DNA of 64,000 nucleotides from Gemmatimonadota bacterium. Its GTDB lineage: Bacteria; JAAXHH01. Shown in pieces: positions 1 through 63,475 of this stretch (positions are counted from its first letter, which is position 1; each line of letters begins with the position of its first letter). The position numbers were made by a program, and so were the translations under genes. The DNA lies in assembly GCA_026705925.1 (NCBI GenBank), contig JAPOZT010000008.1:68217-132216 (forward strand), in the 5' to 3' direction. The notes under the pieces are model-generated. The model was not told the DNA's origin, searched no databases, and was given only the letters and a program-made list of their open reading frames with translations.

Positions 1-148
1 TTTTGCCCTGGGCGGCGTGACCCCCGGCCGCACGCGGGCGTGCCTGGAAGCGGGTGCCTCCGGTGTTGCCGCGATCTCGGCGGTGCTGTCACAATCCGAC
101 ATTCCCGAGGCCGTCAAAAAGTTCGAAAAGGCCCTCGGCGGCCTGTGA
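1..148 (+). CDS. thiE: thiamine-phosphate synthase ThiE, C-terminal fragment (5' end lies outside the window)
   Basis: Reading from position 2 gives FALGGVTPGRTRACLEAGASGVAAISAVLSQSDIPEAVKKFEKALGGL*. This matches the ThiE C-terminus (GG(I/V)T..N......AGA.GV(A/S)(V/M)ISAI). Stop TGA at 146-148. Confidence 0.6.
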   Translation, partial: FALGGVTPGRTRACLEAGASGVAAISAVLSQSDIPEAVKKFEKALGGL

Positions 149-309
149 CCTCTCGCGGCACCTCTCGCGGCACCGTTCGGGGCACCCTTCGCGACACCGA
201 TCGGGGCACCTAAAATAGTTGTTGACAATTCCGGTAAACATACCGAAGTTAGTGGGGAACCATCGACATTTCAGCATTCTAGACTGCCTTCCGCTTACTT
301 TATCCCAAT

Positions 310-1113
310 GTGAGGCGATGTATGCGGCGCATATGGAAAGAAATGAAACGAACGCTCCTGATGTCGGGCCTGCTTGCAGGAATGATCGGAATCGCGTGCA
401 GTGGTACGTCCGTCGAGGAGGAAGTCACGGTCGTCAGCTCCGAGACGATCGGCACCGAGATCGGCCATACGGCGCCGAACTTCGAAGTGTATACCATGGA
501 TGGCACGAAGGTAACCCTGGAGGACTTCAGGGGCCGGCCCCTGTTCGTGAACTTCTGGGCTTGGTGGTGCCCGCCCTGCATCAGGGATGCGGAACCCCTG
601 ATGAACATCGCGAAAAAGTACGAGGGACGGATAGACTTTCTTTTCGTCGGCGTGAACAAATTCTACAAGGATGAGCAACCGCTCGATCCCGCAGAATTCG
701 AGGAAGGATTCGGCCCCGGACTGGAAACCTTCAAGCAAGGACTTCTGGCGTCCAGGCTGGTTCGTCCTTCCGACGAATCGGAAAAGAACGATCCGGATAA
801 AATGGCCGGGATCGCGGCGCGGAACGAAGAAGTCATCGCGTACTATATGGCCAGCCCGACCTCCCTTTTCGATTTTCGCGGCTACTGGGAACGACAGTTC
901 CGGGCCAAGACCAACCAGCGCTACGGCATTCCCGTCACCTACCTGATCGACGGCGAGGGACGCATCAAGCTGGACGTCCATCCCAACGATCAGCACTGGG
1001 ACAAGCACGACGATATCCTGGAAGACCTGATCGCGGGCAAGGACCTGTCCCACTACGCCGAGCGCTTCCCCATACCACCTAAACACCTGCGCGAGGAGGC
1101 ATCGGGAAGCTGA
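310..1113 (+). CDS. TlpA-like thiol:disulfide oxidoreductase (thioredoxin fold, WCPPC active site), probable signal peptide or lipoprotein
   Basis: The ORF has a WWCPPC motif in the context FVNFWAWWCPPC (AhpC/TSA/TlpA family). The N-terminus MKRTLLMSGLLAGMIGIACSG looks like a signal peptide ending in Cys, so the likely true start is the ATG at 343. It is about 90 aa longer than typical TlpA. Confidence 0.75.
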   Translation: MRRCMRRIWKEMKRTLLMSGLLAGMIGIACSGTSVEEEVTVVSSETIGTEIGHTAPNFEVYTMDGTKVTLEDFRGRPLFVNFWAWWCPPCIRDAEPLMNIAKKYEGRIDFLFVGVNKFYKDEQPLDPAEFEEGFGPGLETFKQGLLASRLVRPSDESEKNDPDKMAGIAARNEEVIAYYMASPTSLFDFRGYWERQFRAKTNQRYGIPVTYLIDGEGRIKLDVHPNDQHWDKHDDILEDLIAGKDLSHYAERFPIPPKHLREEASGS

Positions 1114-1250
1114 TCACCAGGACGATAGCTTTCTTCAAGTGCCTTTTCCTGGCTTGTCTCGCCGGCGCGGTCACCCATGCCGGCATTTCAGCCCAGGAAC
1201 TTTCCAGGCCGCTTTGCGGCACGCTGCACCTCCATCCCTTCGTCCAGCCC

Positions 1251-2927
1251 TTGGAGGGCGGACTCGCCGCCAGGACCCACCGGCCCGAACAGGTCGGCCC
1301 GGGCCGGCCCACCGAACCAGGCGAAGGGGACCGCACGAACGACCTCGGACACACCTATACGGCCGAGCCCGAATTCTATGTCAGTCCGGGCGGCCACTTC
1401 AAGATCTGGTACGTCACCACGACGGAAGACCGGCCCGGCGCGGGCTGGCCGGAACTGGAAGACGCAGCCGACGGCACCGTTCCCGAATATGTCCGGCACT
1501 GCGCGGTATTCCTGGATGAATCCCGCCGCGTCATCGTGGAAGATCTGGGTTACCGACCGCCGCCCGTGGACTACGACCATCACGATCGATACGTGGCGAT
1601 GGATGCGGACGATGGCGGGGACGGGCTATACGACGTCTATATTACCGATCTCCCGAGTCAATTCAGTGGCTATACCCGCCCGGAAGCGGTCACAACGGGC
1701 GCGAGCCTTCCTTCGTACATCGTCGTGGACAACGATTACGCCGAGTCCCGGAGGACGGTGGAGAAGGCGCTGGACCTGCTGCGGATCACCGTCGCCCACG
1801 AGTACTTCCACGCCGTGCAGTTCGGCTACGACGCGGGGGAAGAGGCTTTCTGGCTGGAACAGAGTGCCGTGTGGATGGAGGAGCAGGTCTATGACGAGGT
1901 CGACGACTACCTGACCTACCTGCCTACGTTCAGCGGTTTCCTGACGGAGCCATGGAAATCGCTCGATACCTCGAACGGGGAGCATGAATACGCGGGCGTG
2001 CTCTGGCCGCTGTACCTGGAAAAGCGGCACGACAGGGACCTGATCCGCGGCATCTGGGAACGGGCCGGGACGAGCCGGGCGCTGGATGCCATCGACGAGG
2101 GACTGCGCAGTGTCGGCAGCGATCTGAAATCCGCCTTCCAGGAATTCACTACGTGGAACGTCTTCACCGGGGACCGCGCCAACGCGGACCGGTTCCATAA
2201 AGAAGGCGCCGCCTGGCCCCTGGTCGAGCTGAGTGGCCGGCATGGTCTGCACGAGAACGATCCCCAGGGCGCATCGGGCACATACTTTTTTGACGGTCCC
2301 CAGATCCCCGCCCACCAGTACCCGGACCACCTCGCCGCGAACTACATACGTTTTATCCCGGATCCCTCGCTTCCCGGCGGGTTGCGCATCGATTTCTCGG
2401 GTATAACCGGGGAGTGGGGCGTTTCCGTGGCGGCCAGCGGCGACGTAGACACGGTGATGACGGTCCCCGCGACCCGGGGAGACGTATCCATCGAGGTACC
2501 CGACTGGACGCGGTACGAGACCGTCATGCTCGTGGTGGCGTCTTTAGATCGCACCGGAGACGGTTTCGAGTACGCTTACACGGCGGCCTACGATCCCGGT
2601 CTTACGGGCGACGACCGGACTGGCCGGCCGATCGCCGCGTCCCTCACCACGTATCCGAATCCCTTCCGCCTGGGCAGTGGGCCCGCCACCGTCCGGTACG
2701 AAGTCGACCGGCCGGGAGAGGTTCAGCTCACCCTGTACAACGTCATGGGCCGGAAGGTCCGCACGCTGGTGGACGGCATCCATGAGGACGGCACGTTCAC
2801 TACCACGTGGGACGGGAAAGACGATGGAGGAAGAAGGGTAGCCAGCGGTGTCTATCTGTGCCGGATGACGACCGGAGGGGCGGCGGAGCGTTCCGAAGTA
2901 ACGCGCAAGCTGCTGTTCCTAAAATAA
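1251..2927 (+). CDS. secreted zinc metalloprotease (HEXXH) with T9SS (Por) C-terminal sorting domain; N-terminal signal peptide encoded upstream at 1083-1250 without a canonical start
   Basis: HEXXH is present in TVAHEYFHAVQFGYD. The C-terminal ~90 aa (YPNPFRLGSGPATVRYEV...VQLTLYNVMGRKVRTLV...GVYLCRM) match the Por_Secre_tail/T9SS CTD. The same frame is open from 1083 and there encodes KLITRTIAFFKCLFLACLAGAVTHAGISAQE, which looks like a signal peptide. Confidence 0.7.
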   Translation: MEGGLAARTHRPEQVGPGRPTEPGEGDRTNDLGHTYTAEPEFYVSPGGHFKIWYVTTTEDRPGAGWPELEDAADGTVPEYVRHCAVFLDESRRVIVEDLGYRPPPVDYDHHDRYVAMDADDGGDGLYDVYITDLPSQFSGYTRPEAVTTGASLPSYIVVDNDYAESRRTVEKALDLLRITVAHEYFHAVQFGYDAGEEAFWLEQSAVWMEEQVYDEVDDYLTYLPTFSGFLTEPWKSLDTSNGEHEYAGVLWPLYLEKRHDRDLIRGIWERAGTSRALDAIDEGLRSVGSDLKSAFQEFTTWNVFTGDRANADRFHKEGAAWPLVELSGRHGLHENDPQGASGTYFFDGPQIPAHQYPDHLAANYIRFIPDPSLPGGLRIDFSGITGEWGVSVAASGDVDTVMTVPATRGDVSIEVPDWTRYETVMLVVASLDRTGDGFEYAYTAAYDPGLTGDDRTGRPIAASLTTYPNPFRLGSGPATVRYEVDRPGEVQLTLYNVMGRKVRTLVDGIHEDGTFTTTWDGKDDGGRRVASGVYLCRMTTGGAAERSEVTRKLLFLK

Positions 2928-3884
2928 CGGATCCGTGAATGACCGGATGATCTTCTCGCAGGTTTCGGCCGGACCTTCCCCTTCGTCCACGGTGATCCAT
3001 TCGATGTCCCCGGTCTGCCTGAACCAGGTCAGCTGGCGCTTCGCGTACTGCCTGGACCGCTGCTGAATGAGCGAAACCGCATCCTTCAATTCCAGCTCGC
3101 CCTCGATGCACTGCAGCATTTCCGCGTACCCAAACGTCGACATGGCGTGGGTCCCGGGACCAAACCCCCGGACCATCAGGCCGCGGACCTCCTCCTCGAG
3201 ACCCGATTCGATCATTTTCTCGACCCTGGCGTCGATACGCCCATAGAGTGCGGCGCGGTCACGGCGCAACCCGACCAGACGCGTTCCGCGGGATCGGGAC
3301 CGGACGGGCTTTTCGAACCAGGACGTCAGGGTCTCGCCCGTGGCGTCGTGGACCTCCAGCGCCCTTACTATGCGTTGCCGGTCGTTCGCATGGATTCGCG
3401 CGGCCGAAGCCGGATCGACTGCACTCAGCCGACCATGGAGCGCGTCGGTGGACGCTGACCGGTATTCGTCCACCAGGCGTTGCCGGACTGCCGGCGGGAT
3501 TTCCGGTGCGTCGAACATTCCGCCCGCAAGCGCCTTGATGTACAGCCCCGCGCCGCCGACCACGAGGGCCGGCACCTCCCGGGTCGCAATCTCCTGGATC
3601 GCCTCCCGGGCCAGGCGGCCGTATTCGCCGGCGCTGAACCGTACATCCGGATCGACGACGTCGATGAGGTGATGGGGAGCCGCGGCCTGCTCTTCCGCGG
3701 TGGGCTTGGCCGTCCCGATATCCATGTACCGGTAGATCTGGCGGGAATCGGCCGAGATGATCTCCGCACCGAAGCGCCGTGCCAGCTCGATGCCCACAGC
3801 GGTCTTACCCACGCCGGTGGGACCCACGAGAACCGGTATGGGACGTGCGTCGGCGCCATCGGATTCCATTGGACGGGAGGTCAC
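2919..3884 (-). CDS. miaA: tRNA dimethylallyltransferase
   Basis: P-loop VLVGPTGVGKTAVGIELA, plus DSRQIYRYMDIGTAKP and the overall MiaA pattern. 321 aa. Confidence 0.9.
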   Translation of the reverse strand: MTSRPMESDGADARPIPVLVGPTGVGKTAVGIELARRFGAEIISADSRQIYRYMDIGTAKPTAEEQAAAPHHLIDVVDPDVRFSAGEYGRLAREAIQEIATREVPALVVGGAGLYIKALAGGMFDAPEIPPAVRQRLVDEYRSASTDALHGRLSAVDPASAARIHANDRQRIVRALEVHDATGETLTSWFEKPVRSRSRGTRLVGLRRDRAALYGRIDARVEKMIESGLEEEVRGLMVRGFGPGTHAMSTFGYAEMLQCIEGELELKDAVSLIQQRSRQYAKRQLTWFRQTGDIEWITVDEGEGPAETCEKIIRSFTDPLF

Positions 3885-62627: not shown

Positions 62628-63475
62628 CAGGACACTCCCGCCCGATCCACAGTCCCGACCCGCACCGCACCGTCCTTCCGCTGGTCGACCGCACGCACGT
62701 GTTCCACGTAGTCTTCCCGCCGAAAGTAAGCGCTGTCCAGGTTGTCCGTTTCGGACGTGACTGACACGGTGACCCAGTGAGTCGCGAAGCCGCGCCGCCA
62801 GCGGTCCGACGTGTTGCGGCGCGACGAGTGGAGCGTCTCCGAGTGGTGGAAGACCACGCCGCCCTTGCGCACCGGTGCGGAGGCTTCCATCGCCCAGTCG
62901 ATCAGGTCGTCCGGTGGCGCCAGGTTGTAGGGCTGGCCGGGGACCTCAACGTGGTCGATGATCCCCTTTTTGTGCGAACCGGAGATGTAACGGAGGCAGC
63001 CGTTCTCCTCGTCCACGTCGTCGAGGGCGATCCAGGCCGTGATGACGTGGCCGCCCGGCGTGCACCGGAAGTAAAAGTTGTCCTGGTGGTAGGGTTTCTC
63101 CGAGCCGAACCGTGGTGGTTTCATGAAGAGCTGGTCGCTCTTGAGCAGAGGTTCTTCACCGGTGAGCTGCCGGAGGATGTCCCGGAGCCGGCCATCCAGG
63201 GCGAAATCGCGGAACAACGGACTCCGCAGGTAGGGACTGTCGATCTTCCGAGGTGCAGTCTCGCCCGATTCGGAACGGTCCAGCAGATAGCCCTCCATGG
63301 ATTCCTCTACTTCCATGGAATCCGCCGTTTCCACGGCCAGTCGGGCCACCTCGTCGGCCTCTTCGGGCCGGTAGACACCTTCGACGACCAGCCATCCCCG
63401 CTCCTGGAACAACTGAACCTGTTCTTCGCTGATCATTCCGGCTTCCTTCCCGGATGGCGCGGGCCGGCCACTCAT
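62627..63475 (-). CDS. PhyH-family Fe(II)/2OG dioxygenase
   Basis: YHQDNFYF...LRYISGSH. Probable start at MISEEQ (63436). Overlaps tenA by 1 nt. Confidence 0.8.
   Translation of the reverse strand: MSGRPAPSGKEAGMISEEQVQLFQERGWLVVEGVYRPEEADEVARLAVETADSMEVEESMEGYLLDRSESGETAPRKIDSPYLRSPLFRDFALDGRLRDILRQLTGEEPLLKSDQLFMKPPRFGSEKPYHQDNFYFRCTPGGHVITAWIALDDVDEENGCLRYISGSHKKGIIDHVEVPGQPYNLAPPDDLIDWAMEASAPVRKGGVVFHHSETLHSSRRNTSDRWRRGFATHWVTVSVTSETDNLDSAYFRREDYVEHVRAVDQRKDGAVRVGTVDRAGVS

Follow-up and report, generated by a model that had tools for sequence, protein, structure and literature searches.

The window analysed here, a stretch of 64,000 nucleotides (nt) of contig JAPOZT010000008.1 (positions 68,217 to 132,216 of the forward strand, assembly GCA_026705925.1), comes from a group of uncultured bacteria of the Fibrobacteres-Chlorobi-Bacteroidetes (FCB) group that public records call Gemmatimonadota or Latescibacterota. 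Near its 5′ end a gene for a putative secreted metalloprotease follows a gene for a TlpA-like protein. A deletion has removed the spacer between these two genes together with the start codon of the protease, and the deleted form is spread over nine distinct alleles, all of which have an intact protease open reading frame (ORF) under selection and no conserved canonical start codon (ATG, GTG or TTG) ahead of the signal peptide. From these observations we infer the codon used, the coupling and the consequence for expression: the protease on the deletion alleles is probably translated from a near-cognate codon, likely by re-initiation coupled to the TlpA-like gene. Initiation at a rare codon, probably TlpA-coupled, is the explanation best supported by the sequences compared. 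The initial annotation, made from the window sequence alone, had put forward rare-codon initiation, translational coupling or a local sequence error; it missed the cause, which is the deletion of the spacer and the ATG, and the polymorphism within species.

The TlpA-like gene (310 to 1113, forward strand, frame 1), encoding a TlpA/ResA-like thioredoxin fold with matches to PF00578/PF08534 and the NCBIfam ResA/TlpA models, may start at GTG 310, ATG 322 or ATG 343 and ends with TGA 1111-1113. The protease lies on the same strand in frame 3, which is closed on its 5′ side by TAA 1080-1082 in the sequence read, and is open from 1083 to TAA 2925-2927 (direct reading and ORF list, window 1-3200). 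The longest ORF of this frame that starts with ATG, GTG or TTG runs from TTG 1251 to 2927 (558 aa), and no in-frame ATG, GTG or TTG precedes it in the window; that the frame is open from 1083 while its longest canonical ORF begins at 1251 is thus just as first described. The frame-3 peptide 5′ of TTG 1251 reads TPARGGIGKLITRTIAFFKCLFLACLAGAVTHAGISAQE (fuller stretch TPARGGIGKLITRTIAFFKCLFLACLAGAVTHAGISAQELSRPLCGT), and the peptide PLCGTLHLHPFVQPLEGGLAAR, encoded within 1194-1535, bridges the TTG. Five near-cognate codons lie in frame 5′ of TTG 1251, namely ATC 1101, CTG 1110, ATC 1113, ACG 1122 and ATA 1125. The second, third and fifth had been named as the only candidate initiators, which was right for these three but overlooked ATC 1101 and ACG 1122, neither of which is kept in the other deletion alleles.

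The protein is a member of the MXAN_6640 family of metalloproteases (NCBIfam NF045524; Pfam DUF6055), with a score of 214 bits against a cut-off of 140 (E = 3.5e-63) over profile positions 1-272 of 290. The HExxH zinc-binding motif is HEYFH (1797-1811), and is present in 25/25 orthologues read. The C-terminus matches PF13860 (FlgD-Ig-like; 37.8 bits, cut-off 27) and, marginally, TIGR04183, the type A sorting domain of the type IX secretion system (T9SS; 24.0 bits, cut-off 23). The description of the gene as encoding an HEXXH metalloprotease with a T9SS domain is therefore borne out, with the second part near the threshold. The mature protease would be encoded by 1194-2924 of the forward strand, with the MXAN_6640-family domain at about 1404-2267 and the C-terminal domain at about 2652-2882. 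The full-length domain match and the HEYFH motif are shared with the rest of the MXAN_6640 family, whereas the additional T9SS type A/FlgD-Ig-like C-terminal domain and the adjoining TlpA-like gene distinguish the subgroup of the window. The family is annotated as “putative” metalloproteases and has no solved structure detectable by sequence; a sequence search of the PDB returned only FlgD Ig-like domains, for the C-terminus, and no other relative. The predicted N-terminal Sec signal peptide and C-terminal TIGR04183/PF13860 domain resemble those of T9SS type A cargo, and NCBI calls the orthologues “T9SS type A sorting domain-containing protein”; the difference is that the TIGR04183 score in the window barely exceeds its cut-off.

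If CTG 1110 is the start, a signal peptide is predicted at 1110-1193 of the forward strand, with the n-region (M)ITRTIAFFK, the h-region CLFLACLAGAV and the c-region THAGISA, followed by Q. All three regions, which are seen by homology and physicochemical features only, lie 5′ of any canonical start. A search for orthologues found 44 close full-length relatives, most of them of about 600-618 aa, with the N-terminus MDRSFPAFPFFKRLFLACIAGAVTHAGVYAQEP... or MTPRPNVMDRSF.... ATG-initiated orthologues have signal peptides, for example MDRSFPAFPFFKRLFLACIAGAVTHAGVYA|QE, with the same (A/G)|Q junction, (T/A)H(A/T/S)G stretch and hydrophobic core. The peptide encoded upstream of TTG 1251 in the window therefore has genuine N-terminal signal peptides as its homologues. 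Judged by sequence, cleavage is most likely after GISA and before Q (codon 28, 1191-1193), an (A/G)|Q position that is conserved across the orthologues read. The initial annotation had recognised the signal peptide and placed its cleavage at THA|G, four residues early with respect to the conserved site GISA|QE. An (A/G) followed by Q stands at the predicted signal-peptidase site in every orthologue read (window 1191-1196, P0001-P0030), which recalls the “Q-rule” of Bacteroidetes, where it refers to an N-terminal pyroglutamate and is said not to hold across the whole FCB group (PMC5837995).

Comparison of the starts of orthologues, which had been suggested as a check, shows that relatives carry an ATG ahead of the same signal peptide, and not downstream starts without a signal peptide. 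In these ATG-bearing relatives, whose gap measures 225-240 nt, ATGGATCGT (MDRSFPA...) stands ahead of the same h- and c-regions. From the TlpA stop to a conserved CGT anchor there are 224-232 nt, including ATGGATCGT, in L004, L011, L012, L013, L015 and L024, and the same spacer with ATGGATCGT is found in L079; the distance is 101 nt in the nine deletion alleles. The net loss in the short form is 126-127 nt, comprising the spacer, the ATG and the first few protease codons, with the frame kept. Alignment of deletion and spacer-bearing alleles puts the junction at about 1126|1127 (ACGAT|AGCTTTC). As all outgroups carry the spacer, the short form is derived, which makes deletion the cause of the lost start. 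The ends of the deletion show no clear microhomology, and the event may be complex, made up of the main deletion and a 6-nt loss of L/F-P codons.

The nine distinct deletion alleles are those of the window, L005, L001, L007, L008, L071, L072, L074 and L077, after merging identical copies (L001 = L002 = L003; L007 = L075 = L076; L072 = L073; L077 = L078). They come from independent NCBI, ENA and Logan assemblies of both short and long reads, and several are on megabase contigs. The junction AAGCTGATCACC-NGN-NCG-ATAGCTTTCTTC is common to 9/9 (in its longer form, ...GGAAGCTGATCACC-NGN-NCG-AT|AGCTTTCTTCA(A/G)G...). A metagenome-wide scan for the junction GCTTTCTTCAAGNGNCTNNTCCTGGC gave a single match, L070, which is unrelated and due to chance, and the contig location of P0003 was not found. 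In loci with listed genes the order is thiG, thiE, the TlpA-like gene, the protease and then miaA on the opposite strand.

The ORF is uninterrupted in 9/9 deletion alleles, at 602-605 codons counted from the CTG. Pairwise among five of them (window, L005, L001, L007 and L008), the ratio of nonsynonymous to synonymous substitution rates (dN/dS) is 0.13-0.22, with a synonymous divergence (dS) of up to 0.30; among alleles that retain the spacer and the canonical start, dN/dS is 0.13-0.20. The window ORF could reach a stop codon by 178 single-base routes; under neutrality, a tree length of 0.2-0.8 substitutions per site predicts 12-47 nonsense changes, and none is seen. Neither disruption of the frame nor relaxed selection, by which a pseudogene would be recognised, is found in the deletion alleles. 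The predicted signal peptide is also retained: 25 of 72 positions of this segment vary among the nine alleles, and all keep the A|Q junction, K/R at codons 10-11 and an h-region with a mean Kyte-Doolittle hydrophobicity of 1.7-2.75.

No conserved ATG, GTG or TTG was found between 1083 and 1535 when all three frames were scanned in the nine alleles. There is no in-frame canonical start between TAA 1080 and the h-region in any of the nine, and a GTG within the h-region occurs in L001 only. The out-of-frame starts GTG 1139, GTG 1165 and ATG 1177 were dropped as they are not conserved. TTG 1251-1253, the start of the public annotation MCY3712109.1 (558 aa), is likewise of no general use, as only the window has TTG there among the nine. 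The first in-frame canonical start common to all of them is GTG 1536-1538 (forward strand), 142 codons past CTG 1110 and already within the MXAN_6640 domain.

Three near-cognate codons, all on the forward strand and each invariant in 9/9 alleles, can be considered as initiators. On sequence criteria we rank CTG 1110-1112 first, given its overlap geometry and its spacing from a motif of Shine-Dalgarno (SD) type, ATC 1113-1115 second and ATA 1125-1127 third. The CTG overlaps the TlpA stop by 4 nt in the co-directional arrangement CTGA (1110-1113), which has the geometry of an ATGA pair, and the ATC overlaps it by 1 nt, as TGATC (1111-1115). Other 4-nt and 1-nt gene overlaps occur in the window, for example at 3881-3884, 63472-63475 and 62627. 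The SD-like motif is GAGGAGG (1093-1099, forward strand), inside the 3′ end of the TlpA coding sequence, and its core GGAGG (1095-1099) is 10 nt from CTG 1110, 13 nt from ATC 1113 and 25 nt from ATA 1125. This core is found in 8/9 deletion alleles, the remaining one, L071, having GAGGGGA. In the window as a whole, SD-like motifs accompany 34% of first starts and 12% of internal start codons. In spacer-bearing relatives the position of ATC 1113, which is non-coding there, reads ACC, ATT, CGG or TGG.

A hairpin of 11 pairs with an 8-nt loop (1116-1123) is predicted in the RNA at 1104-1134 of the forward strand, and would enclose CTG, ATC, the TGA stop and ATA. Its folding energy is -10.5 kcal/mol (z = -1.87), and 10 of 200 shuffled sequences fold equally well. 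The three variable positions of this stretch fall within the loop, and the arms vary only at 1104 (A in L001). The predicted accessibility of the SD motif and the candidate codons differs between alleles. The hairpin fits a start that is exposed only by a terminating ribosome, which is suggestive and no proof of such a start.

We propose that in an ancestor a net deletion of 126-127 nt took the spacer, the protease ATG and the first few codons, and that what was left of the signal peptide would have been joined by chance, in frame, to the bases just past the TlpA stop. The protease would now be transcribed solely within the TlpA message, and its translation would begin at a near-cognate codon within 1110-1127, most likely CTG 1110, with ATC 1113 or ATA 1125 as alternatives. 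A ribosome that ends on TlpA may re-initiate at CTG 1110, 10 nt after the GGAGG in TlpA. The protease would still be made with its Sec signal peptide, probably at a low level that is tied to TlpA.

At ATGA pairs, termination-reinitiation is described that often needs an intragenic SD motif and in which RNA structure can mask the start (Huber et al. 2019, PMC6728339). The pair in the window resembles such ATGA/TGATG coupled pairs (see also the review PMC12548453) in its co-directional overlap, its intragenic SD motif and its local hairpin, and differs in that the start would be CTG (or ATC) instead of ATG, GTG or TTG, and in that the arrangement arose recently by deletion and is not an old feature of an operon. 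The overlap of stop and start and the SD motif in the 3′ end of the upstream gene both have the form seen in coupled pairs, with a near-cognate start. Among genes with near-cognate starts, infC and pcnB of E. coli begin with AUU, which in infC belongs to a known autoregulatory loop. Like them, the protease gene is without a canonical initiator, keeps a near-cognate codon across relatives and by implication has low expression; unlike infC, with its autoregulatory logic, it has three candidate codons that are indistinguishable. Measured in E. coli, initiation at CUG, AUC or AUA reaches 1-2% of the level of AUG (Hecht et al., bioRxiv 10.1101/063800). Near-cognate starts and coupling through overlaps are thus known phenomena, and the origin by deletion and the polymorphism make the locus a useful natural test case and not a new mechanism.

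A single clade of deletion alleles was expected and was not recovered. Among the five alleles tested, they are not monophyletic in any of 200 bootstrap replicates (0/200), and larger trees of the protease and TlpA genes agree; the failure to form one clade is attributed to recombination. The deletion allele L071 shares 97.9% identity, over 4.35 kb, with the allele L079, which has the full spacer and the ATG. Across TlpA the two have 0-1 differences per 200 nt, and the protease gene is made up alternately of near-identical blocks and of blocks in which 10-16 bases per 200 nt differ. The near-identity of L071 and L079 means that both alleles circulate among very close relatives, with the locus shuffled by recombination. 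The alternating blocks suggest that homologous recombination within the protease gene is frequent among close relatives.

Several points weigh against the proposed coupled initiation. Recombination with ATG-bearing alleles is evident, and the bodies of the deletion ORFs may have been refreshed from functional alleles, which weakens the argument from dN/dS; this caveat is countered by the deletion alleles being the majority in their subclade, with 0/9 damaged. CTG and ATC are fixed by the TlpA serine codon and stop as well, and close spacer-bearing relatives have the same CTGATCACC. Since TlpA coding constrains both codons and spacer-bearing relatives share both, their invariance cannot identify the initiator, and it was dropped as an argument. 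The 10 nt between GGAGG and CTG exceed the usual optimum. The hairpin is only marginally beyond shuffled sequences and shows no covariation, and the signal-peptide call has homology and physicochemical features as its basis. The support for translation and for the N-terminus is comparative and indirect, and the initiator cannot be identified by computation.

Of the other explanations, the one that survives best is de novo initiation, in which the 30S subunit would bind at ATA 1125 or a different near-cognate codon without need of TlpA translation and 1119-1122 would be untranslated spacer. The sequence ATA GCT TTC TTC is strikingly invariant (9/9, including third positions), whereas non-synonymous changes (R/G, T/P) occur in the two preceding codons, and MAFFK(C/R)LFLAC... 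would be short but workable as a signal peptide. This explanation is nevertheless unlikely. The ATA has no conserved SD motif at a suitable distance, as AGGA 1119-1122 leaves a gap of just 2 nt and is absent in alleles with CCGGTACG; it is base-paired in the predicted hairpin; and linkage to the junction can also account for the low diversity next to it, as can the hairpin.

It is quite improbable that the deletion alleles are null or dying, that is, young pseudogenes that give no protease, or a truncated cytoplasmic fragment begun at GTG 1536 or at codons peculiar to single alleles (TTG 1251, for instance). They have lost the canonical start and any signals borne by the spacer, near-cognate initiation is weak in E. 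coli, and the ATG allele coexists in a genome as similar as that of L079, so that recombination could partly maintain the integrity of the ORF. Set against this are ORFs intact in 9/9 over about 1.8 kb, at a dS of up to 0.30 and with a dN/dS equal to that of ATG-bearing alleles, the majority share of the deletion alleles in the subclade, and the hydrophobic h-region and K/R in every allele. As to the fragment, of the nine alleles only that of the window has TTG 1251, and a start at GTG 1536 would remove part of the conserved domain.

We consider it highly improbable that a programmed -1 frameshift near the end of TlpA yields a TlpA-protease fusion, exported by the signal or lipoprotein peptide of TlpA. 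The protease frame is indeed the -1 frame of TlpA, with 9 open codons ahead of the TlpA stop (L008 has 23), and the SD-like GGAGG lies about 5 nt upstream of TCGGGAAGC. Direct reading of 1083-1113 found no X XXY YYZ heptamer, and frameshifting was rejected for want of a slippery site; the one G run there, GGG 1104-1106, is not kept in L001, which has ACAGGAAGC. In a fusion, what used to be the signal peptide would lie inside the protein as a hydrophobic segment, and the 27-nt overlap, which spacer-bearing relatives have as well, comes about as a by-product of TlpA coding. Finally, a sequencing or assembly error (indel or miscall) that hides a normal ATG, which the initial annotation had raised for what was then a single-window observation in sequence of the metagenome-assembled type, is refuted, because the identical junction is shared by nine alleles from independent assemblies, including multi-megabase contigs, and substitutions around it are in frame. 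Initiation at a rare codon, with or without coupling, is the only reading left that fits the intact and selected ORFs, the homologous signal peptide, the lack of a conserved canonical start before GTG 1536 and the lack of a slippery site; that part of the initial annotation has comparative, indirect support.

The spacer itself, where it is retained, has a conserved block (TCCTCCGCGCATGATCGCTTTT.GTGGTG...GTCATCCCGTCC) with more in-frame ATGs (MIAFCG.., MTPRPNV..), as seen in L004 (2884-3000), L011, L012, L015 and L079. An Rfam search of the whole spacer-bearing loci L004, L011 and L079 gave no family match, and the L004 spacer and window 1-1400 were searched for sigma-70-like promoters and intrinsic terminators, with none found in either. 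The spacer and the 5′ end of the protease gene are a hot spot of rearrangement (L006 2409-2585; L010 2402-2585; L014 2470-2615; L009 2423-2594; L025 2420-2570). L006 has lost the 3′ part of the spacer with the ATG, and its in-frame candidates are only GTG and TTG; L010 has lost the 5′ part; and in L014 an upstream spacer ATG (ATGATCGC) is fused straight to the h-region. Another N-terminus (..IPTFSRILxSL..) occurs in L009 and L025 (with P0002 and P0013), and a TlpA-type C-terminal motif was looked for upstream of the protease in both loci and not found. The spacer of L016 (2300-2477) contains a 15-nt tandem repeat of 11.9 copies (consensus GCGGATCACGACGCC), in frame 5′ of the protease ATG, that would read (AADHD/AADYD)n.

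At the other end of the protease gene, a miaA-like gene (2919-3884, minus strand) converges on it with a 9-nt overlap (2919-2927), which is also present in related loci. Ahead of the TlpA-like gene, the intergenic region directly 3′ of the stop of a thiE-like gene carries a 12-nt tandem repeat (window 148-211; 5.3 copies, consensus ACCTCTCGCGGC) that can alternatively be scored with a period of 24 nt.

The public gene models of the deletion alleles that were checked are all truncated at the N-terminus and without a signal peptide: 558 aa for the window (MCY3712109.1), and 586, 460, 442 and 439 aa for sister alleles, the 460-aa models beginning at the position of GTG 1536. Lacking the signal peptide, they will be mislocalised in any secretome or census of T9SS cargo. 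Gene callers that are limited to ATG, GTG and TTG repeat this error wherever a deletion or mutation yields a near-cognate start.

The locus is a natural experiment on a gene that survives the loss of its start codon, in which the pre-existing GGAGG of TlpA and a stop beside in-frame CTG and ATC make a ready-made site of re-initiation. The presence of deletion and ATG alleles in near-identical genomes provides a matched pair for measuring the effect of near-cognate, coupled initiation on expression. A stronger version of the proposal, which we offer tentatively and consider possible without favouring it, is that a secreted protease has been expressed long-term, across several species-level lineages, solely by re-initiation at CUG (or AUC) overlapping the upstream stop, and that deletion alleles and ancestral ATG alleles are kept together, and exchanged by recombination, as low- and high-expression versions of the gene. 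If this is true, a gene can be rescued by termination-reinitiation after the loss of its start codon.

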